DNA from: an uncultured bacterium
GTDB taxonomy: Bacteria; Omnitrophota; Omnitrophia; Omnitrophales; Aquincolibacteriaceae
Assembly (NCBI GenBank): GCA_964385615.1
Contig: CAYLPP010000004.1
Span: forward strand, 108,743-172,742
Length of the DNA: 64,000 nt
Direction of reading: 5' to 3'
Below, one piece after another: positions 41,501 through 63,593 of the stretch. A program made the position numbers and the translations under genes. Within the stretch, counting starts at the first letter, position 1. Every line of letters starts with the position of its first letter. The notes under the pieces are model-generated. The model was not told where the DNA came from and searched no databases. It worked only from the letters and a program-made list of their open reading frames with translations.

Positions 41501-44500
41501 GCGGAAAAGGTTCCGGCAAGTCCACTCTGGCCCGGCAAATCGCGGGCTCTTTATCTCAAAAAGAACCCGGGCGTGAAGGGGTTGTGATTGAAGCGGATTG
41601 GTTTCACCGGGTTCCTTCAGGGCTGACGGCTCAGCTTCGGCGCCTCGCGGGGCTTTTCTTTTGGATGATACTGAGATGGGTCCGGATTTTATCCGAAGAG
41701 GCATTCAATCAGAAAATTTTCGAAGCTTACTTTGATCAGGAAGCTTTACAGAGGTTTCTTCACGATCTCGGCAGCGCGCGGACTTCATCTGAACCTGTTC
41801 CGGTTAAAATCAGGGACCATATTAAAAAAGAAGACGTTTCTGTTTTAATAGGCCGGCGCACGCCCGTGGTTTTTGAGGGCATGCTTTCTACCTTTCTGCT
41901 GAAGGGCTGGTCCGGTATCCGGGTTCATGTGATGACGCCTGGAGCCCGGGCCCGCGAGCGTTATAAGGCCAGGGAGAAACAAAAGGGGAAGGGGAATTTC
42001 CGGATTTTCATGGAGTCCCATGATTTTCTGGCTGGGTGGTTCAACCGTCACGGCCGCAAGGTGCAATTTGATTACGGCTACGTGACAACCGCCAATTTCC
42101 TTAAAGACTCCGCGTGGACGATGATTCAGCTTTCAGGCGGAAAGGGAACCCGAATGGGCCCGGGAGTTCCAAAACCTTTGCGTCAGCTCAAGGGGAAGCC
42201 TCTTTTTGAATACTCTCTGGATACAGCCAAAAGAAACGGGCTTCCTGTCATCGCGGTCGGCTCTTCAAACCAGGATTTGAGAAAAGCCCTGAAACCGCGC
42301 GTTCAGGGATATGTGGAAGAAGAGAGTTCGGTTGAGTCCGCGTTCTTTTCACCTTTGAGTAAATATGGATTCCTGAAAGGGAATTTAGTTTTTATCGGCG
42401 GGGATACGGTGATCACCGATCCCTCCATCCTGCGATCATTGATGCTCGCCCATGAAAAAAAATCACTCATTCCGGCGCTGATGACCTTTTCAACGGTTCG
42501 CGTATCCAACCCGCAAGGCCTGGACCGGGTTGTCCGCGATTCCAAAGGCCGCTACGTGACTTTTATCAAACAGGAAGAAATCGAGTGGCTTAGATCTTCA
42601 GGGCAGACGTTGAAGCTTGGCGATGGAACGGAACTCAAAACTTCTGAGCTTGACGCGATTAATGAAGTCTGGCCCGCGGTGATCGCGATGAGTGCGTTCG
42701 CGTACAGGATTCTGGGTTTTCTCCTTAAATTTAAAGATGCTTTTACGGTGCCGAAGTTCGTGAAAAAGAAAACGATTTCCGTGGATAAAATTCTCAATCG
42801 CGGAGCCCGGCGCCGGTTTCTGATGGCGCTTGGCGCGGTCCGGATTCATCAAATAGAGCAAAAAGACGCCATCCTCAATATTAATACGCCCCAACAGCTT
42901 GAGGAAGCTGAGAGAACTTTAACGGCCCGTTCCGAACTGAGAACCAGCCAGGCGGCGGAATTGGTCCGGGACCTTCAGCGCTGGAAGCTGGGGTTTCACT
43001 CGGAAGGGTTCGCGCTGGAAATTTACGCCCGCGAAATTCTTCTTTTGAAGGAACTTGGAATTTTAAATGAATCGTCTTCGGTTTTCAGTTTTTTGACCGG
43101 CGCGGATTTTCTTCCCGGGTTATTTGCGGGGAAATTTTACTCAACCGAGAAACGGTTTAACGCGGAGCAGATGGGACGTATCTGGAGTTTGACGGCCAAG
43201 AGGGATGCGTTTAAAAGTAATTTGCCGGTCAGCGACGCGGAAATGGAAGCGCTGAAGGCTAAAACGGAACATGAACAGGCGGATGTTCTTAACCCTGAAT
43301 TTATTAAGCGGTGGACGGGGAAAATGAAAGCCGGCGACACGGTTTATCTGCGTTTTGTTCCTGAGCATCTCTCGGACGGGGTTGGACGGAGGGATGTCCG
43401 AAAAATTGAAACCTGGCTGGATCAGCTGATCACCTTGGCGCCTGACGGCGTGCATTTTGTGATTTTTGATTTTAACGAGTCTTCACTTCCCGGCGGTACC
43501 GCCGGATACCTTCAGAGCCGTTATGCCGGCATTCTTACTGACGAAATAAAGTTCCGGCTGGGCAAAGAAGAATATCTCGAATGGCAGAAAATCAATGAAT
43601 GGGAAATACTCGGGCGTCATCTTAAGCGGGTTTCTCTTTCTCTGGACGGACAGCTGATGGATCTTGCTCAAGGCGGACGATTGACGGTTCTAACCAAGCC
43701 TCCGGCGAGGTCGGAGAGCAGGAATTTGCCGGACGCTCAGCCTCCCGTGGAAATTTCGTTTGAAAAAATAGACGGATTCATGCAGGAGATTCGAAGCCTG
43801 ATGGCCCGCAAACCCTGGAATCTTTACAATATTTCAGAGAAGGAAGAATACGTTGCGGACGCGGCGAAGGCTTATCTGGAAAAGATTCAGGGAATTCTTG
43901 AATCGGTTTCCGCCGAAGTCAAAACCTCGAAAGACGCTGTCCGGCTCCGTCTGCTTGAAACCGCGGCGGAGGATTTTGATTATTTCCTGAATGTTTTAAT
44001 TCTTCTCGAAAACCGCGAGCTTAAAGAAGTCAGCTGGAACCGTCTGGAAAAAGGCCAGGGGATTCATCATTACTTTAAATTTGATTACAAAAGCAGAACT
44101 TATTCCGTGGAGGTTTTTGCCCGCTGGTCACGGGGGCAGGGTCCCGAGGCCCGTTTTGAAATCAATTTCCCTCAGCAGGATAGGGAGAGTTTTCGTCTAG
44201 ATCTAAGTTCTTATCTTGGAAATTCAAGAGCCTCTTTTGATATGCCGACGTCGGTGCGGAAACTGGTGCCCGATCATACGGAGCTCTTTCATCATAATAT
44301 TCCTGATCTTTCCTATCAGGAAAATTTTCAGAACTACGTGATTGGGCTTGACCAGAAAATTTCACGTTCGGAATTGCGGGGGTCTCTGCCGCTGATTGAG
44401 ACTTCCGCTAAAAAGCCGCGCCGTGATCCGGAGCTTGTGGAGAAAATGAAGCTGAGGATTACGGTTGTGGGGGCAACGGCGGAAGACATCGCTAAAGGAC

Positions 44501-47500
44501 AACAGTCGTTGGACTCGATTTTTGAAAAAGAAAAGAACCGGAATCTTTCGGTTTACGAACAGGATCTTTTTGATTTTTACGTAAACGGGGAAGGCCGGGA
44601 CGTGCCTTTGGAATACCGCCCAGGGATGCATGGGGGAACAGGCTATTTCGGAAATGATAATGATAAAGGCCGGCCTTACGTCTGGTTCAGCGACGGCCGG
44701 ATGATCAGTAGCCGGTTCCGGGATCCCCGTTCTCCATTTGAAATATTTAAACATGAAGCTTCCCACACGATGGACGCCATCATGGAAAGAAAAGGCGATT
44801 CTAATCTGAAGGGGTATGCCGGTTTTCAGGGCCAGACCAATTCGGGAGTCGATATCTTTTATGTTCCTCAGCATCGGCTGGTTTACCAGGAATTTCGCGC
44901 CAACCTCTGGACTTACGACGGGAATCCCGGCCTGGCGCTCAAAGCTACTTTGCAATCCTATCCGGAACTGCGCACTCTCTTTAATGGAATCGCGGATGTT
45001 GAGAAAAAACCAGCTCCTGTTTTGTACACAGCCTTGAAATGGATGAGCCGTGACATGAATGACCAGCTTTATCCGGATTCAGTTTCCGATATCGGGCAAT
45101 TTGATCAGATTTACATTCACTGGTACCTCGAATTCGCTTCCGGACGGGTTAAAAAACTCAAACGCTCTGAGCTGCGTATGGAAGATATCAACACTATGAA
45201 CGCTTCAGAACTATTTCAGAAACTTCGGGACTCGAGGCTCGGCGACCTGGAAGAGCGGGCGGAGCTTCACCGGCAGTGGTCGGAAGTTCCCGCGGAAAAG
45301 CGCAGGCGGGGCGTGGGAATGATTGTTCTGAGGAAAATCGGCGGGGAATGGAAGGTTCTCTTTGGCCGGCAGAATCACGGCCGTTACAACGGTAAATATG
45401 TAGCTCCTTCCGGCGGAGTTGATAAACCTTTTGATCCGGTTTATGAAAATGCCGCTGAAACCGAAATCCTTCTTAAAAGCGGCATTGTGCAGGATTTTGA
45501 CGGCGCGCGCGGCGGAAAAGAATCCGCCCAGGCCGCGGTTCTGCGGGAACTCAAAGAAGAAACAGGGATCGAGGGGCGGATTGCGGCCCGGCTTGCGGAC
45601 CGCTTTGCCGCCGACGACGGTCTTTTTATGACCTATTTTATTCATGTGGATTCCGGCGAAGATGAAACCGTCCCGGAGCGTGATGGGGAAATCGAACCTC
45701 TGATATGGGTTCCGCTCAGCGTGATTCTGAAATCTGAATCCGGCCAGGCCGGGCAGACTGTTGAACGGGAATTTAATATCGAGTTTGTGCCGGGTCTTAA
45801 ACGGCGTGTTTTGAATATTCTGAAAGACCGGATTCAGTCGCTTCCTCGCTCCGAATTGCGCAATTCTCAGGAGCCTTACGAAAAGCGTCAGGGCCCCACG
45901 GATTTCGAATGGGTCACGCTGAATACCGCCCGTTTTTACGATCATTTGCGTCTGTTGTGGAGTTTGACGCCTAATGTCGCGAAAATCAGGCAGGAATCCA
46001 TGGCGTTCAGCGACGAAGAAAGAGAATCCTTTTTTGATTGGATTGTCCTTCCTTCACCCGCGATGCCGCCGGCGGAATCGCTTCGAAAAATTCTGCATTT
46101 AATCGTAGAGCAGCGGATTCTAGCCAGTCAAAGTAAAAACAGCGATGCTATTTTAAACGCGAATGACTGGGCCGATGTGCTGGCTTACCGCTGGAAAGTT
46201 CCGCCTCAGGTTTTGCAGGCGTTGTTTTTATGGATGGCGCGTTCTTCAATACGCCCGTCGGAAGTTTCGTCTCAGACGCTGATCGATTTTATGAATGCTT
46301 TCATCAGCAGTTACACTGAGGGAAGGCCAAAAGCTTATCAATGGACGCATTTTGGGCCCGCGATTCCCGCCGGTGAATCGGCTGAAGCTAAGCTGAATCG
46401 CGTGACTGCCAGTATTAACACGGCCAAGGCGCTGTTCGGTGAAGATTTTGTGCGGGGGAAAACGCGTTTTATTTCCCGTATCGGCGATTCGCCTTACTAC
46501 ATCGGATTCGGTTTCGGATTCGCGTCTGAGGATCCGTTCCGTCCCACGCTGATTCTAGGTGAGTGGAAAGACGGACAGAAAAATGTTTTTGAACGGGTTT
46601 TCTTTAAAATGAGTTTTGATATTGCCGATACCGGCCGTTTGCAGATTGTCACACTCAAAGGGATCAAGGGCAAAGAAACGGTTATTACCGATTTTCGTTC
46701 CGCGATGGGCGGCTCTCTGGGGCCCGGCCGCGCGCTTTTGACTGCTGCCGCAGTTTTCGCCCGCAAATATAGTTACCGCGAAGTTCTTGGATTAAAAGGG
46801 GAGCATCATACGACCGCTCCGGACGGAAAGCCTTTGAATTACAGCGCGATTTATAAAGGATTCGGTCTCCGTAAAAATTCCAAGGAGGGCCCCTGGCAGT
46901 CGACGGACGTTCTTTTTGAGCGGTTCTCCAGAATCCGGGCAGCGGGTGACGCCAACGCGCAATCGCTTACCCGTTTTCTCGAGGTTTCAGAAAAAATACT
47001 GCCGGCGATCCCTGCCCGCTCCGAACTGCGTACTGAGGAGGAGGATTTTTCCAAAAGCCTCCGGCACATTGAGCTTAAAAAATCCATGACAGACGTAGAA
47101 ATCAAGAAAGTCAGCGACGGATATCCGGGCAAAACACCGATGAGGGGGAAAACGCCGGTGACTAATAACCGTCTGTTGACGAAGATTTTGGACCGGCAAA
47201 AGGGCGAACCCCGTTTTCCTTCGTTGCTGGCCGGGAAACATGTTCTTTTAATCGGGCCGTCGCCGGAAGGCGATGATCTGGAGGCGCTGATCAGACGTTA
47301 TCCTGGGATCGGTAATATTTATCTCGTGGACGCAGACGAAAGAGTTTTTATCGGCAATGACCGCAAACTGCAGGATATGCAGGCCTCAGGAATTGCTTTA
47401 CCCAAAGTGGAAGGTTACAAAATTAACGCGCTTGAATTACCCGGGGAGTGGACGGAGCAAGTCGATGTCGCTATTCACGCGATGGTCATTGACCAGTTCT

Positions 47501-48279
47501 TTTTCAATCCGGCGCAGATCGGGCAGTTTGCCAATGAGATGGTCCGTGTGCTCAAACCCGGCGGCGCTGAGCTTTCCGTCGTCTTTGCCGACGATATTCA
47601 CGCTGGAGACGGGCGAATTCAGAAAATCAATGACTCCCTGCATCTCAAGACTGCCCGCTCTGAAATTCGTCTGGCCGCGGTGCAGCCGACGCTTAACGTG
47701 CGTCAGTCGCTTAAGAATCTGAAAACGCCCGCGTTGGTTTATCTGGATTATAAAAACCTGATGGAAAAATTCTGGGATTCCGAAAAGAACACCTGGAACG
47801 AGCAGGGGATGGAAATTATCGCCATGACCGCAATGCACCCGGACAAAATCCGTCTGGTGATTTCAGGCGCGGATCTGATGGATGACCGGCTGAAAGCTTT
47901 TCGGGACTTGCGGGATTCCGGGAAGAATGTGCGGATCACGGACTTGTCCGCGGCTGAAGCCTATGAAGCTTCGCAAAAGGATTTCATTAAGGGCTGGAAA
48001 AATCATGTGAGTATTCATCTCTCCAAGGATCTGCCCGGGCTTAAGAACTCTTTTAATAAAACCCAGCAATCTGAGATTTATTTCTTCCGTTACGCTCGCC
48101 AGGACAGGCAAGGCGGCTTGCTGGCGGCGGCTCTGCTCTGGGCGCAATACGCGGAAGACGGCAAAACAATGGACGGTGTTACCCGGGATGAAGAAGGTTT
48201 CCTGACCCTGACGGAAGGGTTTATCCGCCAGATCATTCAGAAGTACGAAGCCCGTCTGGTTGTCGCTTTCTCGGCGTAA
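32542..48279 (+). CDS. Giant secreted multi-domain protein (5245 aa) carrying a series of unrelated enzyme-like modules
   Basis: Uninterrupted 15.7-kb ORF. It opens with a signal peptide (MKSYKKPRALRLTALAVLLCFLTSQGGPEARA/FS). Motif-level modules are listed as separate features below. Confidence 0.8.
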   Translation: MKSYKKPRALRLTALAVLLCFLTSQGGPEARAFSAPEGPSIPQKFVHLEESFQGTSGKTLLFIQDAHESLEAQENIAKAIQYFVGSQGVKTVYEEGYEGEVPTDSYFAFIHDPKIRRRVSYFFLDKLRIGGAEFAHINREKDFKLIGADSIKLHLENIAQYQKASARQKEVAEDLRAVLTEFEKLGNSHYSEKIKIWLKLRGRFDSNRLPLPDYLKRTAGLLADTRAYPLISLLISPGINQDREKLKKLEAMDPRQLFSEIDRMENDLAQKELKGKEELKIFQYQKEIMLLVRLNNLEVSAPEYETAQAVLEKLQTRELAEFIARESKRTQVLSREWEEEIRHALDFYKIANARDREIERGIEGFLKNPDENTAVLVFGGFHKNAVKSFLRSRNISYQILSPIISGEDAVHRAYYRELMSEGFYDFEKIAAPSRAARPQTLMTLPQARSEIRGVYRTALDKPDLEYPLFEKEAVRAFNSPAARSELRKMFAVEDEVVRVEIAQTSGKYVLSAYNLRKQETEPRVRVELIEPLSGEEEPARLVLGDIVESHIRADEFLRRALYVLLKKSSVQMVGYLPKTGSAEEMDKIFTWLEKQPGISLLKGNSATVKYDAAEVLMPGYFIGEWNRIRSSKDYGEQVSDFLDSLLLFYSSETDKKHLHDFLLFLLRDPDFIIRRQAVELMLRYVRIPVDQIFLHLENPDSGPFRDDQVSLPNPLSSELATANKRLALLVFLSQISQAVKAQRWAVDAYYGAVLRQRFASELETSAGDPVFDIANESALMESIQNEPKAGLGHAGKMSALEVLVREYFRYLYVTEVRKQADPFKWLHDDLYAMVPQLKIPKTEALIIRMTSKFRSELRTENPWDGRVREVRLNADRSAASVVFEDGKTVELTEKFEEGAYHEFFAYHENGRRLLLKVMKPGLDGDRYDKGVKSLENEARISDILRRVKHMQNVTNVIWLGTIPGSGDALLISGPEAQSLKDWRERLTLQERGGVFRQYVEQIFQAYSGPERESVSIHDLKPANGLLKVTRNPDGSLRYTVHVIDLEAGKMTEDIPFRDIWRGTYPYLPNAELIAMLMTELGRHKTLGLVGFMELLIFFQDFVLDDDAMNGGTANVEKFLRRKDKAVFENIVKKISDYEKYRKIWYYEEHPGDPVDLNALFADLIESLRVIEGFKVRKVLFVESWWNWFAGFISMIFRKLLALLPKRTRALPFEFNDAESTRLPAAPPADDGISSEAPTPRPETAGTDTLSQFRRLMFLLEALGPQFSERDFVRKGNRTVRELSSLYLIEKAAESNDALDVSIYEQAENDVRRVYGWLKRPVDSYAEDTIRYIREKFITPRSELRTAARVEDNGVKLREILGRLIRTRTSGEVVILPGISQHPAVIDKDTLEKDKKALTDLIRLYLKQAISLGPPSSYYLPWDIFPFERNSIELETLVSLGRYLGFWKTEPDPGSKFPSAAILRTYRTRIPLIGDFNLHGDSVKEGRLAELNDLERLEILHRVFAEVKTEMETEMLPGYFDMSGPLRFDSFREIPGIDDLEDFERRGVLGKGKEAAVFSAGTGTLPALLAAFTRSGKITVYEKNSYFLAKARKAVERLHHLGVLDEGRFTWVKEDWRNQKDDWKKFDFILLPPAGQSESPASEKEIQESVSAQAVVYKFARSEVRSVRALIQQADHLERTGALIPEVSSQFVNRHMGPYRTALQLLTNRILAEDLSDDAFLELWTEYLKALKTADLPLLVQVPIHIVAVMRMHGAQMASWARVWFSKPRKDWRRIVHVLSAEAGDETLMGTLLRREILPFMDSYMNARKREWMDEKTPEDRAARWKYHWTQAGENPGVEAVEKAGSDYLEEFIQGLPVSFRQTDPGKDWPSQSQSLLEMLSPAGDGLLSLIIEAEEKSGLDASQLIVQFDERLNFLPAFVHKLFMNDLLKKYKVYLLKIWLRNLQEQAGFEYQAGDYFGQVKITIEAKANEGAGLKAYFSGAPDWKFEPDGRTLKFPELSGVEDSENRPGMFKAPGVFWQILGDFQLKFLEKDGRRILVPIAYLEEVQSSTGYRDIRNRTEHLKSARKLNRGRTLAVDAVARAAAKMGVLVMARGPETASLFIYNRRTLAQIDPGSRTEIEMHYVSPFSNTQHWKKVEAPSYAGTDYYLFEGNREVLKRHGWPEDTIQQLLRSEVRRDPRENIRMDLTENWRRFLNGEAADPEIADQVERALKSKLDHYLLITALIRLHVSQAVTEEQIFSGLERLMESVSTEGKEYLSILGIILSQRNFAEGFAGLNPESGAFYFDLIGMTQTGDVLPEVRPLNQRNEAVGALLNLDAPDKKTLMDGVRDVTGEKALTPEDLNPLTDIVRIQAGDTQDVYMISALLKDGRRVPFILMAARGRTALRAVRREFENFEPYRDDERAVHVIGWSQTGNEAGYTSRFSNTEEIIYVSMSEPALHGETPGNFTKNSDLPLRVGEIRGAESLRKITAAFASAIVYFYKADLKRSVQFIVSSAGDLNFYDSDFQPIAEQPGKYEVKPEVEKLRTRLIAFRGYNDEVDPAHLIAELFDFTYFTPDSSDLMTGPVHDDAMIQGVLDGLVQGLEDKLKDPVLARKTAMEWLQAYLNAFSDYENPVFGPPINVIPEVRGRIARLRREVKQAEKRSELRVNPKSEGLDLNGYAWLKELPVAHFKELKDFLEMLFGLDQSGKLLELEKRERILEQSAYFLRLFQDRVKYPRGFDEIPPGIFAHSAGMFFISNLSYLGIYRQLESEGVLQPGAVKNLIELGPSFWNYSSVLQKAYPNLQHALGVDNDPAKTAGFQQGAVQLLGVDPAVFQYEIADFKSLDQNQKIRQWMDQNGKSDVLFLQNPEPQSRPGVFFTVPEYRDFLARAGSLLDEKGKMIVVIDEDRLDHDGNPELLSVIRGLVYQTLTGFRIPQQAGFLGMPELRKVKILAIPQPELVRLAQRSEMRALNFTPVYAVEERIELIEEIRKQSALNSEPPFVILEGGKGSGKSTLARQIAGSLSQKEPGREGVVIEADWFHRVPSGLTAQLRRLAGLFFWMILRWVRILSEEAFNQKIFEAYFDQEALQRFLHDLGSARTSSEPVPVKIRDHIKKEDVSVLIGRRTPVVFEGMLSTFLLKGWSGIRVHVMTPGARARERYKAREKQKGKGNFRIFMESHDFLAGWFNRHGRKVQFDYGYVTTANFLKDSAWTMIQLSGGKGTRMGPGVPKPLRQLKGKPLFEYSLDTAKRNGLPVIAVGSSNQDLRKALKPRVQGYVEEESSVESAFFSPLSKYGFLKGNLVFIGGDTVITDPSILRSLMLAHEKKSLIPALMTFSTVRVSNPQGLDRVVRDSKGRYVTFIKQEEIEWLRSSGQTLKLGDGTELKTSELDAINEVWPAVIAMSAFAYRILGFLLKFKDAFTVPKFVKKKTISVDKILNRGARRRFLMALGAVRIHQIEQKDAILNINTPQQLEEAERTLTARSELRTSQAAELVRDLQRWKLGFHSEGFALEIYAREILLLKELGILNESSSVFSFLTGADFLPGLFAGKFYSTEKRFNAEQMGRIWSLTAKRDAFKSNLPVSDAEMEALKAKTEHEQADVLNPEFIKRWTGKMKAGDTVYLRFVPEHLSDGVGRRDVRKIETWLDQLITLAPDGVHFVIFDFNESSLPGGTAGYLQSRYAGILTDEIKFRLGKEEYLEWQKINEWEILGRHLKRVSLSLDGQLMDLAQGGRLTVLTKPPARSESRNLPDAQPPVEISFEKIDGFMQEIRSLMARKPWNLYNISEKEEYVADAAKAYLEKIQGILESVSAEVKTSKDAVRLRLLETAAEDFDYFLNVLILLENRELKEVSWNRLEKGQGIHHYFKFDYKSRTYSVEVFARWSRGQGPEARFEINFPQQDRESFRLDLSSYLGNSRASFDMPTSVRKLVPDHTELFHHNIPDLSYQENFQNYVIGLDQKISRSELRGSLPLIETSAKKPRRDPELVEKMKLRITVVGATAEDIAKGQQSLDSIFEKEKNRNLSVYEQDLFDFYVNGEGRDVPLEYRPGMHGGTGYFGNDNDKGRPYVWFSDGRMISSRFRDPRSPFEIFKHEASHTMDAIMERKGDSNLKGYAGFQGQTNSGVDIFYVPQHRLVYQEFRANLWTYDGNPGLALKATLQSYPELRTLFNGIADVEKKPAPVLYTALKWMSRDMNDQLYPDSVSDIGQFDQIYIHWYLEFASGRVKKLKRSELRMEDINTMNASELFQKLRDSRLGDLEERAELHRQWSEVPAEKRRRGVGMIVLRKIGGEWKVLFGRQNHGRYNGKYVAPSGGVDKPFDPVYENAAETEILLKSGIVQDFDGARGGKESAQAAVLRELKEETGIEGRIAARLADRFAADDGLFMTYFIHVDSGEDETVPERDGEIEPLIWVPLSVILKSESGQAGQTVEREFNIEFVPGLKRRVLNILKDRIQSLPRSELRNSQEPYEKRQGPTDFEWVTLNTARFYDHLRLLWSLTPNVAKIRQESMAFSDEERESFFDWIVLPSPAMPPAESLRKILHLIVEQRILASQSKNSDAILNANDWADVLAYRWKVPPQVLQALFLWMARSSIRPSEVSSQTLIDFMNAFISSYTEGRPKAYQWTHFGPAIPAGESAEAKLNRVTASINTAKALFGEDFVRGKTRFISRIGDSPYYIGFGFGFASEDPFRPTLILGEWKDGQKNVFERVFFKMSFDIADTGRLQIVTLKGIKGKETVITDFRSAMGGSLGPGRALLTAAAVFARKYSYREVLGLKGEHHTTAPDGKPLNYSAIYKGFGLRKNSKEGPWQSTDVLFERFSRIRAAGDANAQSLTRFLEVSEKILPAIPARSELRTEEEDFSKSLRHIELKKSMTDVEIKKVSDGYPGKTPMRGKTPVTNNRLLTKILDRQKGEPRFPSLLAGKHVLLIGPSPEGDDLEALIRRYPGIGNIYLVDADERVFIGNDRKLQDMQASGIALPKVEGYKINALELPGEWTEQVDVAIHAMVIDQFFFNPAQIGQFANEMVRVLKPGGAELSVVFADDIHAGDGRIQKINDSLHLKTARSEIRLAAVQPTLNVRQSLKNLKTPALVYLDYKNLMEKFWDSEKNTWNEQGMEIIAMTAMHPDKIRLVISGADLMDDRLKAFRDLRDSGKNVRITDLSAAEAYEASQKDFIKGWKNHVSIHLSKDLPGLKNSFNKTQQSEIYFFRYARQDRQGGLLAAALLWAQYAEDGKTMDGVTRDEEGFLTLTEGFIRQIIQKYEARLVVAFSA
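32700..33780 (+). other. N-terminal domain of giant ORF 1, shared with giant ORF 2; possibly TraB/GumN/Tiki-like
   Basis: LFIQDAHESLEAQ ... VFGGFHKN in ORF 1 parallels LVLHVQNIHGNYEAQ ... LVTGGFHTQ in ORF 2. A first-His motif near the N-terminus and a GGFH motif about 320 aa later resemble the TraB/Tiki GxxH pair. Confidence 0.35.
35240..35800 (+). other. Protein-kinase-like / aminoglycoside-choline-kinase-like module in giant ORF 1
   Basis: Catalytic-loop-like IHDLKPANGLL (HxDxxxxN, about 35587-35613), an upstream LLLKVMKPG (candidate VAIK lysine) and a downstream DLEAG (DFG-like). Confidence 0.45.
37190..37445 (+). other. Class I SAM-methyltransferase-like module (1) in giant ORF 1
   Basis: Motif I-like AVFSAGTGTLPALLA, an acidic post-I residue in ITVYEKN, and a motif IV-like FDFILLPPAG (compare FDLIVSNPPY of HemK-type enzymes). 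Confidence 0.35.
41500..41526 (+). other. Walker A P-loop (GGKGSGKST), kinase-type NTPase module in giant ORF 1
   Basis: VILEGGKGSGKSTLARQIA followed by VVIEADWF (hydrophobic strand plus Asp, Walker B-like). It resembles small-molecule/nucleoside kinase P-loops. Confidence 0.5.
42127..42430 (+). other. Sugar-phosphate nucleotidyltransferase (NTP_transferase) module in giant ORF 1
   Basis: LSGGKGTRMGPGVPKPL matches the (L/A)GGxGTR(L/M)xPxTxxxPKPL signature of RmlA/GlmU/LicC-type nucleotidyltransferases. FIGGDTVI lies downstream. Confidence 0.6.
44752..44766 (+). other. HExxH motif (HEASH), candidate zinc-metallopeptidase-like site in giant ORF 1
   Basis: FEIFKHEASHTMDAIM sits in a region with no other recognised fold. 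The motif alone is weak evidence. Confidence 0.25.
45300..45730 (+). other. NUDIX hydrolase module in giant ORF 1
   Basis: Canonical Nudix box GGKESAQAAVLRELKEETGIEG (Gx5Ex7REUxEExGU) at about 45511-45576, preceded by a beta-rich GVGMIVLRK segment. Confidence 0.7.
47236..47600 (+). other. Class I SAM-dependent methyltransferase module (2) in giant ORF 1
   Basis: Motif I-like KHVLLIGPSPEGDDL, then VDVAIHAMVIDQF and the classic RVLKPGG motif. Confidence 0.55.
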
Positions 48280-48332
48280 CCGTGCAGGTCCGGTCGAATA
48301 CGGTTTTGCATATGATGGTCATATGGGCGGGC

Positions 48333-48360
48333 TTGTTTATTTAAGGATTTGGGGTATATT
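48333..48360 (+). promoter_or_regulatory. Candidate sigma70 promoter for giant ORF 2 (TTGTTT, 16-nt spacer, TATATT)
   Basis: The hexamers lie in the 169-nt AT-rich spacer between the two giant ORFs. Spacing was counted by hand. Confidence 0.25.
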
Positions 48361-48448
48361 TTAATGCGGATTTATTTTTCTTTAATAAGGGACTTGTTTT
48401 TATTTTACGGGGGGATATCAGGCAATTTACATAAAAAGGCGAGCGAAA

Positions 48449-51400
48449 ATGGTCATGACGAAAAGGAAGAAAAAAATCCGCAAGATTTTTACCTTGGGGA
48501 TCCTTTTTTGCTTTTCCGCCACAAATATCTGGGCAATGCCCGAACCCGGTCTTATACTCCTTCCGCAAAAAGAAACGCCCGCGTTTCTGCAGGTTGAAAT
48601 TCCAAAAGACATTGCTTCGATTGAAGAGGTTTATGAAGCTCCGCCCAAAAGCGATCCGCGTTTAGTTCTTCATGTGCAGAACATTCACGGCAACTACGAA
48701 GCGCAGATGCAGATCAAGAAACTTCTCGATTACCTTTACAAACGCTACGCTTTTAAACTTTTATTTGTGGAAGGTGCCGTCGACACTCTCGATCCTGCCT
48801 ACCTTAAACTCTTTTCTGAGGAAGATCGAAATCAAAAATTAGCCGATTACCTCGCGAAGCGGGGAGAGCTCACCGGCATTGAAACTTACATGATGGAAGC
48901 TCCCCGTGATGTCCGCGCGGTGGGCATTGAAGAGCCCGCTCTATACCGTAAAAATCTCGAAGCTTACAAAGCTGTGATGTCTAAAAGAGAAGAAACGGAT
49001 AAGTTCCTCAGGCGTTATGAAGAAAAGCTCGAGCTTTTGTCTTCCCGAAATTTCTCTCCTGAGACCCGGCGTTTAATCAGTGAATGGAAAAAGTTCCAGG
49101 ACGGCCAGCGTGATTTCCTGCCCTATGTGAGACGTCTTTCTCAGGATGCCCGTAAAATTATCGGACTCGATCTCGAAAGTCTTTTCGCTCAGGTCGAGTG
49201 GCCTCAAATGACCCGGCTTTTAGTGCTCCAATCGATGGAAGCTGAGTTGAATCTTGAATCGGCTCAAGATGAAAAACAAAAGGTCTTGAGTTTTTTAAAA
49301 GAGAAAAAGATATCGTCTGAAATTTTAACTGCCATTGAAAAACTGGGTGAGAAACGCATTACGATGACGCGTGAAAATTCTGAAGCCGCCCGCCTGGAAG
49401 ATTTGCCCCGTTACCTCTTGGAGCGTCTTGTCGATGAAGCCAGCCCTCGAGGTTTTTACTTCCACGACTATCCCGCTTTTAGCTTGTGGGCCGGTTATCT
49501 GATTCTTCAAAGCGAGCTTGATTCGAGGACTCTTTTTGATGAAATTGAGAGGGTTTTCGAGAAGACGCTCGATCAGCTGACGGTAACCCAGGGTGAAAAA
49601 AATCTGATGGAACTTTACCGTGACGAACGTCTTCTCAATAAACTTCTTCATCTTGAACTGACCCGTAAGGAATGGGAAAAGGTCAGCTACCGTAAAGAAT
49701 GGAACCATCCCTCGGCTATGCTGAACCGCCTTAAAAAAATAGGGCAGGAATTTGACTCTCGGTTAAAAAGGACTCCGGAAACTTTGGTGCCCAAGCAGGA
49801 AGTGACAGGCATGGAAGAATCTCCGGAGTCTGAAGAATTTCCGATGAACGGTCTTTTTGAAACCGCTGTGAGCTTTTACGATTTTGCCCGCGAACGCGAG
49901 GCTGTGTTTATGAATACGATCAAAAAGGAAATGAGCGCTCAGAAAACAGAAAAAGCCGTGCTGGTTACCGGCGGGTTTCACACGCAGGGTATTTTAGAAA
50001 TGTTCCGTGATGATGAAATTAATTATAGCGTGCTTATGCCGAGGATCGCGGGAAGCGACCTGAGCACCGACAATTACGTTACTAATATGCTGGAAGACCG
50101 CAAAACCATGTTCGACATCGCAGGTCTTGAAGCCATTATTAAACTTCAAAATGCGGACCGCAGAACCCAACAGGGTGCCGACGCGGCTTACGAAGTGAAA
50201 AGAACGCTGGAAGCCTACGCGAAGTTTACGGGTTCTGAAACGCTTGCTCAGCTCGTTAATCATTTTAACGTTTTCAATCAATCGGCTTTCTCAGTAGGCT
50301 ATAAAGTAACGCTGGAAACGGTGCTCAATCAAGATAACCAGCCTTACGGCGTTAGAATTTTAGTAAACGGTCAGCCTCTGAAGAAAAATGACAGCGATAA
50401 GCGGGACATTGTCATTCCGATCATGACGGGTAAGAATCCGGAAACCAAACTCCCTGAATTTCGACTCGCGGATCACGCGGTGCTTAGGATTGGCGAGTCA
50501 GTGACTTCTCGTTCTGAGGTAAGAGGGGTAAGTGAAGCGGAGAAGGCTCAATTTGAAGCAATGCTTGGAAGGTTGCGGGGTTTAGGAGAGGGATATCTGG
50601 CGGCACTGCAGACTGGAATTACGCAAGTGATCCAGGCCGGTGAGGGGGGTGTTTTTGATTGGGCCACGAGTGACAGCGGTCATAAGGCTTACCGTGAATT
50701 ATTCGGAACGAATACGGGAACGGTCAATTATGGAAAGTTTGAAAATGCGGCGGCGCGGCAATTAGCCTCCACGATCGCAGGATTTATTCTGCAGTCGGGA
50801 TTGAAACCGAGAAGCTCAGCCGATCAGCAGGAACTGCTTGGAATCTTAACTCAATATGGAAAAGAGCAGGAAACAGCTGGTGAAAAGCCGTCCTCTGTCA
50901 AGCCGCAAGCCGGTGCTTGGAATGCCGAAATGACTGCAAGATTTCCTGCTTTTACGGTTTCGGTGGATGAAATTGAAGTGCCCGAAGCCCCGGTTATCGC
51001 GGGCAGGAGAGTGGAAGGATTCATGAGAGGGCTTCCTGAAGCCGGGGAGTTTCAGCGCGCGTACGGAGCGCTGGTGGGAGCGCGGGATTGGCTTGAAGAA
51101 GCGGGGCAGTTGGAAGGCGGGGAATTATTCAGTCAATGGGCGCAGGCGGTAGGACTGGTGCGGGAGATTCTGTGGATAATCAGCTACCGTACTGAGGGCC
51201 AGCGGTCTGCTCTCCCGGCTTTATTGAATCAAGCGATTGATGAGACGGTGGATTTGAACGGGAGTGAGTTGGCCTTCAGAGAGTCCGGGCTTAAGAAGCT
51301 GGAGCATTTGAGACAGGCGCTAATGCAGAATTTTAATTGGCCTGTGCCGAGCTTTATTTCAAAGTCTTTTTTGATAAAAGCTGAAGACGCAGCCGCTCGT

Positions 51401-54400
51401 ACGGAACGCATGATTATTTCCCCAAATGGCAAGTACGCGGTAAAGGTCGGAAGGGATCCGGGAATTTCTGTGTTGAGAGTTGGGAACTATGGAGAAGAGT
51501 TTACAGAGGTGGTTGATTCTGTCAGCCAGTCTGGACGCAGGGTTCTGGGGGCTGCCTTTGATTCTGACGGCGGTTATCTGGCGACATCCGGAGTTGATCC
51601 TAAGCTGAATCTGTGGAGTGTCGCTGAGGATGGGAAGCTGACGCTCATCTTTCAAGAAGACGTGAACGATGTAACTTCAGCAATAGCATTTTCTCCTGAT
51701 AACCGCTATTTGGTAAGCATAGGTTTGAATCAAGGGCTGAACCTGTGGCGTGTCGAGAACCGGTCTTTGCGTAAGGTTTTAACGTGGAGACCTCAAGATT
51801 TAAGCCGTTGGCCGGTTGGTTTAATTCGCAGTGTTGCTTTTTTACCTGGCGGTCAAGTTGAGATTGTGGGAGGGCAAAATGCAAGCTCCGGATCGAGGGG
51901 GCTCGATGCGTTTGTCTATAATCTTTTCCCTGTGGCGCCGCAAGCCAGGTCTGAAGCGCGCGTTTATGAAGAAAGGGATCCAAGGCTCGATTTTAGGAAG
52001 GGAGAGTATTACCTGCACGAGAATTTTGGGTTAGTGAGGCTGGAAGATTTTGAATACACCGTAAAAAATGGGGTTCCTGAAATAGCAAGCGATAAGATAA
52101 AAGTGCTTCCGCTGGGTGCTAGTCAGACAAATACGGCAATCATAAAGAATTCAAGTAAAAGAAGCGGGTATGTCGAAACCTCGCAGAATCCAATCACTCT
52201 GACCATTACTAAGGAAACGATGAAAGCGGGTTCTTTCGTCCCTTACTACAAACAAGATCAAAATTCTAAGCTTAGGGTAACCGATGCCGCGAAAGCGCTT
52301 ACAGAAAAAAGGCTTCAGGCCTTGGGGTATAGTAAATCCTCAGCCTTAGTTCCTATTTTGTTTGGGTTTGACGTGATTGCCAAAAGAATTCAGTCTGAAA
52401 AGAAAAGCGGAGTGACGGACGGCTATTTTAGCCGTGTGTATGAACAGATCAAAACTGAAGTGCCGGAAGGGGCTATGGACTATCCTTGGGATGTTCTTAA
52501 AAGCCAGAGTTTAACGGCTGAGCAAATAAAATTTTTCAAAACTTTATTCCTCCGGATTTATCAGGAACAAGGAGAGGATGTGATTTTGACCGGTTTACTT
52601 GATTCCTTTAAGCGGGAATCTGAAAACTATATGGACACCTGGGCTTTTACCACCTCGACCGGGAATGATTTTGTGGAGAATAAAACTTCAAACTTAATTG
52701 GAGCAGGAAGCCGCGGCGATCAATGGTCTCCGTTAAGAACCATCCCGAAGGACATCGACAGATACTACCGTGGGAATCTTTTAAAAGGGCTCTTGTTTTT
52801 GAACAGTGAAACCGAGACTTTGATAAGTGAAGAGGACTACCAAAAAATTCAGGACCGGTTTAACCTCTATCTGAGGCCTTATTATTCGCGAAAAAATCCC
52901 CTTCATGGCTCCGATGCATTTTCTCAGCTGATGCTGACTTTTAAAGACGCTATTCGCGACGGTGATTTTACAGCCGTTAACGAGCTTCTTAAAATTGTAG
53001 GGCCGGACATTGTGAGGTTAAAAAGCCGACTTTCCGGAAAATATCTCGTGGTGCCCGCGCCGTCACCGGATTTCTTTAAAAATCAAACGGTTCCGTTAGC
53101 CGCGATAATTGCGCGCGAGCTGGATTTTCCCGCGAGTTTATTTGCTTTGTCAAAAAGCGGCCAAAGAAAGAAGCCGCAAAAGCTTCAGCCTGATCTTTGG
53201 CATCGAGTTGAGAACGCGGGGAAATCTTTTCTTGAGGCGGATCCTGAGATTGTGTCGGGGAAAGAAATACTGGTGGTGGATGATATTGTAACCAGCGGAT
53301 TTACGCTGGATGCCGCGCGCGAGGCGCTTTATGCCGCCGGCGCGAAAAAAGTTCTTACTCTTGCTTACGGCCGTACGACTTACGGGAAAGATGAAAATAC
53401 TGCTGATGAAAATACGCCTGTGGATGAAGATGAAGCGGAACCGGCAGAGACAGAAGATGAAAGCGTTGCGGAAGCGCAAGGAAGTATTCTCGCCGGATGG
53501 CCCTCCGAAATCATGCTTTTGAAACCGTCTGAAGAGGCTGTGGCCCAGGGGGCTCTTTCGCGGACCATGGTTGATAGGCTCTTTGAAATATTGTCGCCGG
53601 GGCTTATCGATGGAATGGATCAAGATGAGAAAAACCGGTGGGGCCAAATTATAATTTGGATCCTGAGACAACCACAGTTAGGGTTTACGGACAGTCAGCC
53701 GGATGTTGAAAGGAAAGCTGTTGGGCTCAGGATTTTAATGAACTTGAATTATAGGGGGCCGGGTCTGTTAGAGCTGATCAAGGATGAAATTGATTTTAGC
53801 GCGCCTGGCCGCACTGTAAGAGCGAAGGTTTTTTCAGGGGTGATGGAACTGGCCGGCAATCTTCCGCCTGAATCAGCCGTTGATTTATTGCCTGGACTAA
53901 GCTCTTTTCTGGATCTTGCCCCGCAGAGAGTATTAAATAATCTCACATTCGGCGGTGTGAAGATTCCTATGCTGGCAGTTATGAGAATACAGATCATTAT
54001 TGAGAAAGCGGAAGAATCCTTGACTCCGGAAGCTCTCGTAAAAGTGAAACCCGCGCTAAGCACAGTGAAGACGGCCTTAACCGCTTATCTGGGCAGCGGA
54101 CGCTTAAAAAAAGATGAAAAAGCATTGATCAATAATGTGCTTCAAAGTTTATCCCGCTCCGAAGCGAGAGACGATGGCCGGCAAGCCAGGTCCGAAGTGC
54201 GTTTCACTCAGCCGACTGAAGGCGCGGAAAAAATAACAGAACCGGGGGGTGTGCCTGGAATTCCGGAGCGCTTTAACGGCGTGCAATTCCCTTCAGGTTC
54301 AGAGTTGTCCCGATGGTTTATGACGGTGGAGCCGAAGCTGCCGGTAAAGGTTCGCGTGCCGTTTTTAAGCGGGGGATTTGTCGCCTACGCGGAGGAGCCG

Positions 54401-55159
54401 GCGGATATGGGCGAAGTTGCCGTTTTGGGTGATCTCGTGGTCAGAGAAACTACGCCTGAATCCGCACGGCAAATTTCAAGAATCGCGGCGGAACTTGACG
54501 TGCCGTCCGTTCCGATGGCCTTGCTGTCTGTCATTTCTAATGAACCTGATCTTGAAGCTTTGGCCGTGGCGGCCGTCTTGAATCCCAAGGCTTACTCGGC
54601 CGTCGTTTACATTCTTCCTGACGGAAAATCAGAAGCCGAAGCCCGGGACCTTCAAAAAAAATACGAAGATCAGACCAAAGAGATCGAAGCGCTTCGGACA
54701 GGCGGCAAAGCTGTGGGCAAACGCTTCCGTTTGATTGTGACTTCCAAGGCAAATGCCATGGGGCGCATTTCCGAAGCGGAACGCTATCTTTTCGCGAACA
54801 TGAAGGATTCGGTCAACGCTTCAAGTGCCGGGGAAATGATGGAAAAATACGGGGTACAGCTTGTCGTTGGCCCGAATCTTTTGGATTTGTCACTGCTTGA
54901 ACGTCCGCGTGTCAGCCGTTTGGTCAGGCTTGAACTTGCGTCCGGCGCGCCGGATGCCGGCGCTATATCAGGAACGGCCATGGTGGTTGCGGCTAAAATG
55001 GGTCTGGCCAAGGAAATTGATCCGAAGACTGCCCAGTTAATTGATAACAGGGAGCAGGGCGATAAGGTCATTACGCTTTCGCTCAATAAGCTTCGTGCCT
55101 GGGAGCAGAAACTTCGTTCTGAAATCAGAGCCACTCTCAGCTTCGCGAAGGCGGCTTAA
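48449..55159 (+). CDS. Giant secreted multi-domain protein 2 (2236 aa), with an N-terminus paralogous to giant ORF 1
   Basis: Uninterrupted 6.7-kb ORF. Signal peptide MVMTKRKKKIRKIFTLGILFCFSATNIWA/MP. The shared N-terminal domain, WD40-like region and PRTase module are annotated separately. Confidence 0.8.
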   Translation: MVMTKRKKKIRKIFTLGILFCFSATNIWAMPEPGLILLPQKETPAFLQVEIPKDIASIEEVYEAPPKSDPRLVLHVQNIHGNYEAQMQIKKLLDYLYKRYAFKLLFVEGAVDTLDPAYLKLFSEEDRNQKLADYLAKRGELTGIETYMMEAPRDVRAVGIEEPALYRKNLEAYKAVMSKREETDKFLRRYEEKLELLSSRNFSPETRRLISEWKKFQDGQRDFLPYVRRLSQDARKIIGLDLESLFAQVEWPQMTRLLVLQSMEAELNLESAQDEKQKVLSFLKEKKISSEILTAIEKLGEKRITMTRENSEAARLEDLPRYLLERLVDEASPRGFYFHDYPAFSLWAGYLILQSELDSRTLFDEIERVFEKTLDQLTVTQGEKNLMELYRDERLLNKLLHLELTRKEWEKVSYRKEWNHPSAMLNRLKKIGQEFDSRLKRTPETLVPKQEVTGMEESPESEEFPMNGLFETAVSFYDFAREREAVFMNTIKKEMSAQKTEKAVLVTGGFHTQGILEMFRDDEINYSVLMPRIAGSDLSTDNYVTNMLEDRKTMFDIAGLEAIIKLQNADRRTQQGADAAYEVKRTLEAYAKFTGSETLAQLVNHFNVFNQSAFSVGYKVTLETVLNQDNQPYGVRILVNGQPLKKNDSDKRDIVIPIMTGKNPETKLPEFRLADHAVLRIGESVTSRSEVRGVSEAEKAQFEAMLGRLRGLGEGYLAALQTGITQVIQAGEGGVFDWATSDSGHKAYRELFGTNTGTVNYGKFENAAARQLASTIAGFILQSGLKPRSSADQQELLGILTQYGKEQETAGEKPSSVKPQAGAWNAEMTARFPAFTVSVDEIEVPEAPVIAGRRVEGFMRGLPEAGEFQRAYGALVGARDWLEEAGQLEGGELFSQWAQAVGLVREILWIISYRTEGQRSALPALLNQAIDETVDLNGSELAFRESGLKKLEHLRQALMQNFNWPVPSFISKSFLIKAEDAAARTERMIISPNGKYAVKVGRDPGISVLRVGNYGEEFTEVVDSVSQSGRRVLGAAFDSDGGYLATSGVDPKLNLWSVAEDGKLTLIFQEDVNDVTSAIAFSPDNRYLVSIGLNQGLNLWRVENRSLRKVLTWRPQDLSRWPVGLIRSVAFLPGGQVEIVGGQNASSGSRGLDAFVYNLFPVAPQARSEARVYEERDPRLDFRKGEYYLHENFGLVRLEDFEYTVKNGVPEIASDKIKVLPLGASQTNTAIIKNSSKRSGYVETSQNPITLTITKETMKAGSFVPYYKQDQNSKLRVTDAAKALTEKRLQALGYSKSSALVPILFGFDVIAKRIQSEKKSGVTDGYFSRVYEQIKTEVPEGAMDYPWDVLKSQSLTAEQIKFFKTLFLRIYQEQGEDVILTGLLDSFKRESENYMDTWAFTTSTGNDFVENKTSNLIGAGSRGDQWSPLRTIPKDIDRYYRGNLLKGLLFLNSETETLISEEDYQKIQDRFNLYLRPYYSRKNPLHGSDAFSQLMLTFKDAIRDGDFTAVNELLKIVGPDIVRLKSRLSGKYLVVPAPSPDFFKNQTVPLAAIIARELDFPASLFALSKSGQRKKPQKLQPDLWHRVENAGKSFLEADPEIVSGKEILVVDDIVTSGFTLDAAREALYAAGAKKVLTLAYGRTTYGKDENTADENTPVDEDEAEPAETEDESVAEAQGSILAGWPSEIMLLKPSEEAVAQGALSRTMVDRLFEILSPGLIDGMDQDEKNRWGQIIIWILRQPQLGFTDSQPDVERKAVGLRILMNLNYRGPGLLELIKDEIDFSAPGRTVRAKVFSGVMELAGNLPPESAVDLLPGLSSFLDLAPQRVLNNLTFGGVKIPMLAVMRIQIIIEKAEESLTPEALVKVKPALSTVKTALTAYLGSGRLKKDEKALINNVLQSLSRSEARDDGRQARSEVRFTQPTEGAEKITEPGGVPGIPERFNGVQFPSGSELSRWFMTVEPKLPVKVRVPFLSGGFVAYAEEPADMGEVAVLGDLVVRETTPESARQISRIAAELDVPSVPMALLSVISNEPDLEALAVAAVLNPKAYSAVVYILPDGKSEAEARDLQKKYEDQTKEIEALRTGGKAVGKRFRLIVTSKANAMGRISEAERYLFANMKDSVNASSAGEMMEKYGVQLVVGPNLLDLSLLERPRVSRLVRLELASGAPDAGAISGTAMVVAAKMGLAKEIDPKTAQLIDNREQGDKVITLSLNKLRAWEQKLRSEIRATLSFAKAA
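51420..51800 (+). other. WD40-like beta-propeller repeats in giant ORF 2
   Basis: Repeating units ..AAFDSDGGYLATSGVDPKLNLWSV.. and ..AFSPDNRYLVSIGLNQGLNLWRV.. follow the WD-repeat consensus (S/T-x-D-x-x-h-x-h-W). Confidence 0.5.
53038..53370 (+). other. ComF/GntX-type phosphoribosyltransferase module in giant ORF 2
   Basis: The PRPP-binding motif ILVVDDIVTSGFTLDAAREAL..GAKKV and the upstream KYLVVPAPSP..AAIIAREL pattern are typical of ComFC-family PRTases. Confidence 0.6.
53385..53480 (+). repeat. Acidic low-complexity linker (DENTADENTPVDEDEAEPAETEDESVAEAQ) in giant ORF 2
   Basis: Run of Asp/Glu-rich codons immediately after the PRTase module. Confidence 0.6.
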
Positions 55160-63069: not shown

Positions 63070-63593
63070 TTCTGACACCTACTGCCGAATTTAAAGTTTT
63101 TCTAATGACCCTTGCCGTGCTGTTTGCCGCGGTTTTGACCGTCGCGCGGATCAGCGACGAAAGGCGTCCGAAATTTCTTTTCGTTCTCTTTCTTATCTAC
63201 CTGGTTTTTCAAAGCTTTCAGTTCATGGAGTTTTTCCCGTTTACTTCTTTTCAGCGGTACGCTCAATCCCAAGACGCTTCCGTGCGCTATATCGTCATGA
63301 AAGCCAGACTTGGAAACGGAACCGAGTTCGCGAAAGCGCCTGAAAAGGTTCTGCCCGCGCTTGGGCATGGAAGACTCAAGCATTTTCTTAAAATGGTTTT
63401 TAGAAATCCCCGTCTGACAGATGAGCTCGCGACCTCATACGCCAGAGCTTACGAAAAGCGTTTCTCCGAGAGTTCAGAATGGCCGATTTGGGACCTTCGT
63501 TATGAAAAAATGAAATGGAATGTTGAAACGGATCCTTATGACGCTGATCATGGGTATTTGCTCAAGCGTCTGATCGGGGAGCCTCAAGGATAA
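63066..63593 (+). CDS. Hypothetical small membrane protein
   Basis: 175-aa ORF with N-terminal TM helices. It has a 4-nt overlap with the upstream gene. Confidence 0.45.
   Translation: MILTPTAEFKVFLMTLAVLFAAVLTVARISDERRPKFLFVLFLIYLVFQSFQFMEFFPFTSFQRYAQSQDASVRYIVMKARLGNGTEFAKAPEKVLPALGHGRLKHFLKMVFRNPRLTDELATSYARAYEKRFSESSEWPIWDLRYEKMKWNVETDPYDADHGYLLKRLIGEPQG

Follow-up and report, generated by a model that had tools for sequence, protein, structure and literature searches.

Omnitrophota are widespread, ultra-small bacteria that have been proposed to be predators or parasites (PMC10066038), and long 'multi-enzyme' proteins, including the Archaeovorins, have been described in this phylum (West-Roberts et al. 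2023, bioRxiv 10.1101/2023.11.21.568195; Nielsen & Lui 2026, bioRxiv 10.64898/2026.06.07.730766). Here we analyzed a 64 kb stretch of contig CAYLPP010000004.1 from an uncultured bacterium of this phylum (the window, whose positions are used for all coordinates), which carries two very long tandem open reading frames (ORFs) on the + strand, ORF1 and ORF2, and we focused on the downstream one, ORF2. The published giants resemble our pair in that their long ORFs string together enzyme domains of many unrelated kinds (NUDIX, methyltransferases, nucleotidyl- and glycosyltransferases), mostly carry a signal peptide or membrane helices, have no Pfam match over most of their sequence, and are suspected of post-translational cleavage. 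ORF1 and ORF2 differ from them in length, with 5.2 and 2.2 thousand amino acids (kaa) against cut-offs of 10-30 kaa in those studies, and Pfam found no SecA-like, C39-peptidase or dockerin domains in either. The Archaeovorin type (>30 kaa, many transmembrane regions, SecA DEAD-like; West-Roberts et al. 2023) does not fit ORF2, which has 2.2 kaa, no SecA and no hydrophobic segment passing the threshold used for our membrane-helix count; only the enzyme content of ORF1 (NUDIX, methyltransferase) is alike. Term searches of both preprints found no mention of a conserved N-terminal domain, C-terminus or junction motif, and a search of PMC10066038 likewise gave no mention of a junction motif or polyprotein. 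Published analyses state that cleavage is possible and that missing information on cleavage points blocked one published analysis of long proteins. ORF2 belongs to a known kind, the long modular proteins of Omnitrophota, within which its family, with the punctuation code reported below, is undescribed.

Comparable organizations are found in other systems. MARTX toxins consist of one exported polypeptide bearing an array of unrelated effector modules that differs by strain, and a built-in protease cuts between the modules at a Leu-based site. We propose similar features here, and the MARTX effector RRSP has the TIKI-type fold that we propose for the N-terminal domain (N-domain) of ORF2. Our candidate protease would differ in being N-terminal and TIKI-like, and the junction is a strict pentapeptide. 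Membership in MARTX was rejected because Pfam scans of ORF1, ORF2 and 20 neighboring ORFs found no RTX repeats, cysteine protease domain or type I secretion genes. In the polymorphic toxins CdiA and Rhs/YD, a short motif marks the junction of constant and variable parts (VENN in CdiA, PxxxxDPxGL in Rhs). These toxins share with our genes a conserved region abutting variable cargo, a junction motif and several paralogues per genome, whereas our genes have an internal, multi-module variable part, a conserved C-terminus and cargo with the folds of ordinary enzymes, and lack an immunity gene; membership was rejected because ORF2 lacks a variable C-terminal toxin domain with an adjacent immunity gene. 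Large exported precursors also include RgpA, Kgp and HagA of Porphyromonas gingivalis, of which the gingipain ones are cut after Arg/Lys by their own protease domain, and the P97/P102 adhesins of Mycoplasma hyopneumoniae are cut after the F of S/T-X-F-X-D/E, with recurring motifs in disordered linkers. Cleavage sites have been mapped experimentally in these motif-processed surface polyproteins, whereas ours are putative, and they are not related to our genes in fold, motif or phylum. In their proposed way of working, our genes come closest to MARTX toxins and the motif-processed surface polyproteins.

ORF2 (48449..55159) encodes 2236 amino acids (aa) plus a stop codon in an intact ATG-to-stop frame that runs uninterrupted over 6.7 kb, and ORF1 (32542..48279, 5245 aa) lies 169 nt upstream. 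A preliminary description of this DNA had called ORF2 a giant tandem gene and had ascribed to both ORFs a signal peptide, a common N-terminal domain and different cargo. BLASTP of ORF1 aa 1-450 against ORF2 aa 1-688 gave two colinear segments (E 8e-10, 21% identity over 217 aa; E 1e-8, 29% over 78 aa), so the similarity extends beyond short motifs, and whole-protein BLAST found none outside the N-terminal region, so the cargo differs. In both ORFs the N-terminus shows a basic and then a hydrophobic stretch; that of ORF2 (aa 1-29, 48449..48535) begins with MVMTKRKKKIRK, followed by a hydrophobic core and then NIWA/MPEPG, a junction conserved in relatives as ...W[GA]/MP. Both N-termini thus appear signal-peptide-like, and all of these earlier claims held. 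ORF2 is identical to an unnamed NCBI protein, P0110, from a 215-kb contig, and NCBI holds each of the two ORFs as a singleton protein with no name.

With ORF2 aa 1-688 as the query, 45 proteins of 38-57% identity were retrieved, nearly all of them unannotated, about 1000 aa long and from metagenome-assembled genomes (MAGs) of Omnitrophota; N-domain homologues in Omnitrophota proteins of this length showed 43-57% identity. Scanning GTDB with one genome per species yielded 360 relatives, and 79 loci with ORF lengths from ~930 to >4000 aa, from Omnitrophota or unclassified MAGs, were kept; several MAGs contain 3-4 family copies. A profile search of 1.84 billion representatives matched 8,935 clusters at E <= 1e-3 and 4,743 at E <= 1e-30. 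Among the top 150 hits of this census, which were 480-7,498 aa long, the N-domain always stood at the N-terminus, from residues 1-20 or so. These results show that ORF2 is a real gene and a member of a very large family, as yet without a name, that is all but confined to Omnitrophota. The chassis consists, in order, of the signal-peptide-like N-terminus, an N-domain of ~650 aa, 0 to ~20 unrelated modules and, in ORF2-type members, a C-terminal domain (C-domain) of ~315 aa. We consider the family membership and modular architecture of ORF2 highly probable. The data support ORF1 and ORF2 as paralogues on a common chassis with different payloads, a pattern that holds phylum-wide; a survey of related genomes, which the preliminary description had proposed, gave the 360 GTDB relatives and the 8,935 clusters.

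The proteins are punctuated by a five-residue motif. In agreement with the preliminary description, RSExR occurs in ORF2 at five sites (aa 688, 1167, 1903, 1914 and 2223) against 0.056 expected from composition (P 4e-9), and ORF1 contains 15 sites against 0.16 expected (P 7e-25), while only 2 further matches were found elsewhere in the six frames of the window. Family-wide counts were 273 against 3.3 expected in 79 family ORFs and 453 against 8.4 in 125 independent representatives, and R-[SA]-E-x-R was enriched ~80-fold. We compared 863 ORFs of at least 200 aa, taken from the window together with the loci, about 1.2 Mb of DNA from Omnitrophota. At least two motifs were present in 51/86 ORFs with the N-domain and in 8/777 without it, and all 8 were pieces of truncated or frameshifted family genes. 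Among these ORFs, R-[SA]-E-x-R in two or more copies is exclusive to family genes. A literature search for the motif string returned just unrelated software names.

The first ORF2 motif, RSEVR (aa 688-692, 50510..50524), stands at the end of a linker that is disordered in the AlphaFold2 model of the N-domain (predicted local distance difference test, pLDDT, <50). Motif 2, RSEAR (aa 1167-1171, 51947..51961), was identified by sequence match, and a double motif follows (54155..54202), made up of RSEAR at aa 1903-1907 and RSEVR at aa 1914-1918, whose starts are 11 residues apart; the 38 residues past this fourth motif are also modeled with low confidence. The last motif, RSEIR (aa 2223-2227, 55115-55129), lies inside the C-domain. 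The median inter-motif distance is 276 aa. Close pairs 11-35 residues apart with 'empty' spacers were seen at ORF2 aa 1903/1914 and ORF1 aa 448/483 (33883-34002), and in relatives 15/238 inter-motif distances are below 50 aa. The first-position Arg is near-obligatory, xSExR with another first residue being almost absent. No flanking position is conserved, and merely small residues are favored on both sides: over 832 sites, Pro, Gly, Ser and Ala are enriched and bulky hydrophobics depleted (P down to 1e-26). At the 20 sites of the window, Arg is encoded by CGC, CGT, CGA, CGG, AGG and AGA, and Ser by TCN and AGT, which indicates selection on the peptide and not on the DNA; because the codons differ at all 20 sites, we rejected the idea that the junctions are repeats or recombination sites in the DNA itself.

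The motif also varies by lineage. P0192 has RAEVR at 15/15 sites, L060 has RAEKR, some members have RxE[ML]R, and the variant is common to the paralogues of one MAG. A separate clade (P0213, P0203, P0194, P0232 and P0208) carries [AG][AS]SLG at similar spacing in place of R[SA]ExR, with 20 SLG sites in the 7376 aa of P0213; the N-domains of this clade cluster apart (38% identity within, 31% to others). Among minimal members (~1000 aa), 15/36 contain any motif and 21/36 none, which indicates that the motif comes with cargo. In the 30 residues that follow a motif, hydrophobic helices are enriched threefold (27% against 8.7%), and each such module therefore looks as if it had its own N-terminal anchor. 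Modules opening with a membrane-helix-like segment right after the motif include those at aa 756-790 of the L001 ORF and aa 834-870 of P0004. Many relatives have several internal membrane helices.

The motifs also mark the places where relatives differ. Over aa 1-691 of ORF2, the closest relative, L001 (ORF >3550 aa), shows 71% identity; past the first RSEVR of ORF2 the two can no longer be aligned. When 205 family proteins were compared all against all, a motif lay within 10 aa of the start in 31% of the cargo homology blocks and within 10 aa of the end in 30%, six times the 5% obtained at random, and homologous modules stand at different ordinal positions in different proteins. Two ORF1 modules (aa 3942-4207 and 4436-4825) have relatives that start at or near motifs in other proteins. 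Motif-bounded modules are the units that differ between relatives. Known domains fit between the motifs as well: in ORF1, NUDIX (aa 4253-4395) is flanked by motifs at 4208 and 4436 and a methyltransferase (aa 4910-5008) by motifs at 4826 and 5039, and in L032 a receiver domain (1752-1873) lies between motifs 1734 and 1879, bracketed within 18 and 6 residues.

ORF2 carries two cargo modules. Module 1 (aa 693-1166, 50525..51946) has an unassigned N-terminal half followed by WD40-like repeats (aa 979-1146, 51383..51886). PF00400 scored 30.1 bits on the module alone (cut-off 27) and 23.1 bits, below the cut-off, on whole ORF2, and phmmer from the ORF2 cargo (aa 688-1918), a homologue query dominated by WD40 proteins, reached bona fide WD40 proteins at E 7e-32. 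The WD40-like region named in the preliminary description is thus sustained; the matches span about four blades, and a closed propeller has 6-8. Module 2 (aa 1172-1902, 51962..54154) contains, between unassigned parts, a type I phosphoribosyltransferase (PRTase) domain (aa 1548-1653, 53090..53407) followed by an acidic tract. PF00156 scored 42.7 bits (gathering threshold 26.3), and the phosphoribosyl pyrophosphate (PRPP) loop, ILVVDDIVTSGFT, is intact. Of the ComFC-like PRTase with acidic tail proposed earlier, the PRTase and the tail stand and the ComF label falls: TIGR00201 scored 18.6 bits against a cut-off of 233.55 and covered just its C-terminal 53 positions. The GntX model NF008616 was rejected as well (14.6 bits against 304). 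The PRTase region scored no worse against the defense-toxin models ShosT (4e-11) and PsyrT (5e-9) than against generic PF00156; the ShosT match is limited to the PRPP-loop part (aa 1592-1648), and that of PsyrT (aa 1550-1644) comprises most of the Pfam domain. ORF2 aa 1172-1517 and aa 1685-1902 had no Pfam match even at E 1, a homologue search with aa 1172-1902 returned nothing for the module as a whole, and neither ORF2 cargo module had a relative by BLAST among 79 family proteins or, in a second round, among 205. The cargo of ORF1 includes NUDIX, P-loop plus nucleotidyltransferase, and methyltransferase-like modules.

Three features of the chassis go beyond the preliminary description: a conserved C-terminal domain, an -[SA]A end, and an N-domain resembling the TIKI/TraB/erythromycin-esterase group. 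The C-domain of ORF2 (aa 1919-2236, 54203..55156) was modeled with a Rossmann-like alpha/beta core (AlphaFold2 pLDDT 65). A hidden Markov model (HMM) of the C-termini of relatives hit ORF2 with E 2.4e-12, aligning to aa 1970-2201 within an envelope of aa 1960-2236, and jackhmmer from the ORF2 tail reached 21/44 complete family ORFs, of any length. Neither HMM nor jackhmmer detected homology between the last module of ORF1 and the ORF2 C-domain. ORF2 ends in -KAA (55148-55156) and ORF1 in -FSA (48268-48276); an -AA or -SA end was found in 98/125 independent representatives and in nearly all complete family members. Such small nonpolar C-termini look like recognition tags of tail-specific or Clp-type proteases.

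We then considered the nature of the N-domain (aa 30-687, 48536..50509). The AlphaFold2 model of aa 30-688 (pLDDT 83; predicted template modeling score 0.81) has an alpha/beta core, which a helical insertion of ~300 aa divides, and a small subdomain at the C-terminal side. No variation was seen at His80, Glu108, Arg483 and Gly508-Gly509-Phe510-His511: each residue is covered by 81-83 of 86 family ORFs, ORF1 included, and kept in all covering ORFs. The active site of the TIKI/TraB-type superfamily is made up of a His paired with a Glu, another His and one basic residue, as in Bcr135 (pair His85/Glu113) and RRSP (Glu3900, His3902, Glu3930, Arg4001, His4030; PMC6254334). The 28 residues between His80 and Glu108 equal the spacing of His85/Glu113 in Bcr135 and of His3902/Glu3930 in RRSP, and Arg483 precedes His511 by 28 residues, compared with 29 in RRSP (PMC6254334). 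The domain is thus like the TIKI, TraB-PrgY-GumN, ChaN and erythromycin-esterase proteins of that source in its His...28...Glu and Arg...28...His in GxxH, and differs from the superfamily in the ~300-aa helical insertion within the core; RRSP has Glu two positions ahead of the first His, where this family has Asn or Asp. These features suggest that the N-domain is probably a hydrolase of the TIKI superfamily, with a TIKI/TraB/ChaN/erythromycin-esterase/RRSP-like core. In Foldseek, the helical insertion (aa ~134-470, window ~48935-49945) resembled alpha-pore-forming toxins of the ClyA, MakE, NheA, XaxB and SmhB types, but weakly and without reaching significance (E 0.4-3).

The best overall explanation of these features, to which we give a probability of about 0.45, is that ORF2 encodes an exported polyprotein that is cut at its motifs. 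Export would proceed via Sec, as the basic-hydrophobic N-terminus and its conserved junction suggest; the motifs would act as endoproteolytic processing sites in the precursor, and after cutting, head, WD40 module, PRTase module and tail would each be a polypeptide of its own. A motif that is short, strict and variable by lineage, and that sits in linkers joining independent folding units, has the look of a protease site, and we accept cleavage at the motif tentatively, at just under even odds. The most economical candidate for the protease would be the protein's own TIKI-like N-domain, because its TIKI, RRSP and TraB/PrgY relatives are sequence-specific peptidases and each protein has one candidate hydrolase; lineage-specific motif variants are also what co-evolving enzyme-site pairs would give. 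That the N-domain is the protease nevertheless seems doubtful to us. In the most far-reaching form of the proposal, thousands of Omnitrophota proteins would be self-processing polyproteins, in which a TIKI-like endopeptidase reads a lineage-specific punctuation code and cuts the exported precursor into up to ~20 enzymes or membrane-anchored proteins, with cargo moved as motif-bounded cassettes; this combination is a still more doubtful proposition.

Several observations weigh against the fold assignment or against processing by the N-domain. No cleavage has been observed, and the processing steps are putative. As to the fold, no Pfam or NCBIfam model matches the N-domain, and PF01963, PF04187, PF05139 and their relatives gave no significant profile match; a core-only Pfam scan yielded just Cofac_haem_bdg, at a non-significant E of 0.06 in 1/18 members. 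The N-domain and core-only profiles found nothing relevant among PDB sequences. Foldseek of the model against PDB gave no match at E <= 0.001 and mostly long helical proteins, BcR135 and EreC appearing solely at E 0.8-1.4. The superfamily also holds esterases and non-enzymes (ChaN, PMT), and the fold does not imply a peptidase. The 21/36 motif-free minimal members retain the invariant N-domain residues, and the N-domain must therefore have a function beyond cargo cutting. ORF1 and ORF2 both use RSExR though their N-domains are just 21-29% identical over the aligned segments; together with the sharing of variants within a MAG, this means that a trans-acting factor fits at least as well as self-cleavage. 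Periplasmic export of a nucleotide-dependent PRTase or NUDIX is hard to rationalize unless they are delivered to another cell. Finally, the motif at aa 2223, the last of ORF2, is placed by the model in a helix and not in a linker (pLDDT 65).

The helical position of that motif and the motif-free minimal members with intact catalytic residues would also suit the main rival to processing, an uncleaved, envelope-tethered multi-domain scaffold in which the motif is a hinge, or a docking or modification site (for example on Ser) for a partner. Short linear docking and modification motifs are likewise strict with unconserved flanks, and published work takes the long Omnitrophota proteins as single membrane-associated polypeptides (PMC10066038; Nielsen & Lui 2026). 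However, a hinge needs neither five fixed residues nor lineage-specific alternatives such as SLG, motif pairs 8-35 residues apart are hard to understand as hinges, and the threefold enrichment of hydrophobic helices after motifs makes the modules resemble independent anchored proteins. We regard the scaffold as unlikely on balance.

A further possibility, which can coexist with processing, is that the chassis is a delivery vehicle and the cargo consists of effectors or toxins acting in a host or prey, diversified by conflict. This would account for cargo that is wholly different between close relatives on a conserved chassis, for several paralogues per genome, and for a signal-peptide-like N-terminus on cargo enzymes that require cytoplasmic cofactors. 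It would also suit the proposed predatory or parasitic life of Omnitrophota (PMC10066038), the matches of the PRTase region to ShosT and PsyrT, and the fact that RRSP and HopBA1, which have the fold proposed for the N-domain, are themselves delivered effectors. However, the ShosT and PsyrT matches extend little beyond the PRPP-binding portion that is generic to the PRTase fold, variation is internal and the C-terminus conserved, and the several internal membrane helices of many relatives fit resident membrane proteins better than injected ones. No immunity-like gene, secretion system or recognized toxin domain was evident among the neighboring ORFs scanned, the neighbors being MutS, MutL, aminoacyl-tRNA synthetases and ClpB. 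We therefore consider an effector role improbable. The preliminary description had compared the pair with polymorphic effector families; its tandem paralogues with a common chassis and swapped payloads are upheld by L001 and the 360 relatives, and the effector likeness, among housekeeping neighbors, is an analogy only.

It is very improbable that the motif is a role-free scar of DNA-level cassette insertion or recombination. Motifs do coincide with homology breakpoints and are largely missing from cargo-free minimal members, but the 15-nt sites have no common DNA sequence while their amino acids stay fixed, and the same peptide is kept across proteins whose N-domains are ~40% identical, which requires selection on the peptide. 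Some MAG relatives are visibly frameshifted or truncated (L006, L024, L075), but it is hardly credible that ORF2 itself is an artefact of chimeric assembly, of pseudogene fusion or of a wrongly called frame, given its uninterrupted 6.7 kb frame, the conserved N-domain and C-domain at their expected ends, and the same architecture in hundreds of independent assemblies.

The surroundings of the pair were also inspected. The spacer between ORF1 and ORF2 (48280..48448) is AT-rich, and a scan of it for promoters and terminators found no signal exceeding shuffled controls. Within ORF2, G+C is 0.46 over the N-domain and the PRTase module (48001-50000 and 52001-54000) against ~0.50 elsewhere, and GC skew has its maximum, 0.21, at 50001-52000; these differences could reflect separate origins of the modules. 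Directly 3' of ORF2, a 471-aa ORF (55324-56739, +) has a signal-peptide-like start, a Pro/Ser/Thr-rich region and, in its C-terminal half, many Y-x-x-D-G-like beta-repeat stretches that are YD-repeat-like in look; a Pfam scan of it gave no significant match. This putatively secreted protein is followed in order by MutS and MutL. The larger flanking genes (1-32440, 56787-63593) are all on the + strand and all housekeeping, and include those for the C-terminal part of MetH, the Asp/Asn/Lys-type, Glu, Cys and Met tRNA ligases, a MacB-like permease, ClpB/ClpC, IspDF, an IF-2B-like protein, DUF6178, a GT2 glycosyltransferase, MutS, MutL and an LMF1-like protein. Among the 20 neighboring ORFs scanned, no secretion system, mobile-element, immunity-like gene or toxin domain was seen. 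The closest relative, L001, does not keep the synteny of the tandem pair and has another neighborhood, with UvrD upstream. A second family gene lies upstream of the matched one in L023 (1-9917), L054 and L062, and tandem pairs of the ORF1/ORF2 type therefore recur; in L023 the upstream gene ends at 9764, ~150 nt ahead of the start of the next.

For the biology of Omnitrophota, a conserved head and tail now define a family of roughly 9,000 clusters among the largely unexplained long genes of this phylum. The strict junction motif splits the proteins into domain-sized units that can be used for structure prediction and annotation, and the N-domain becomes a candidate protease with named putative catalytic residues. 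If the motif is left uncleaved, it would still be the best available marker of module boundaries and cassette exchange. If it is processed, the family would represent a way of packing many enzymes into one exported precursor, and a self-processing code would make these proteins the cellular equivalent of viral polyproteins and would provide a cleavage map for the long proteins of the phylum.

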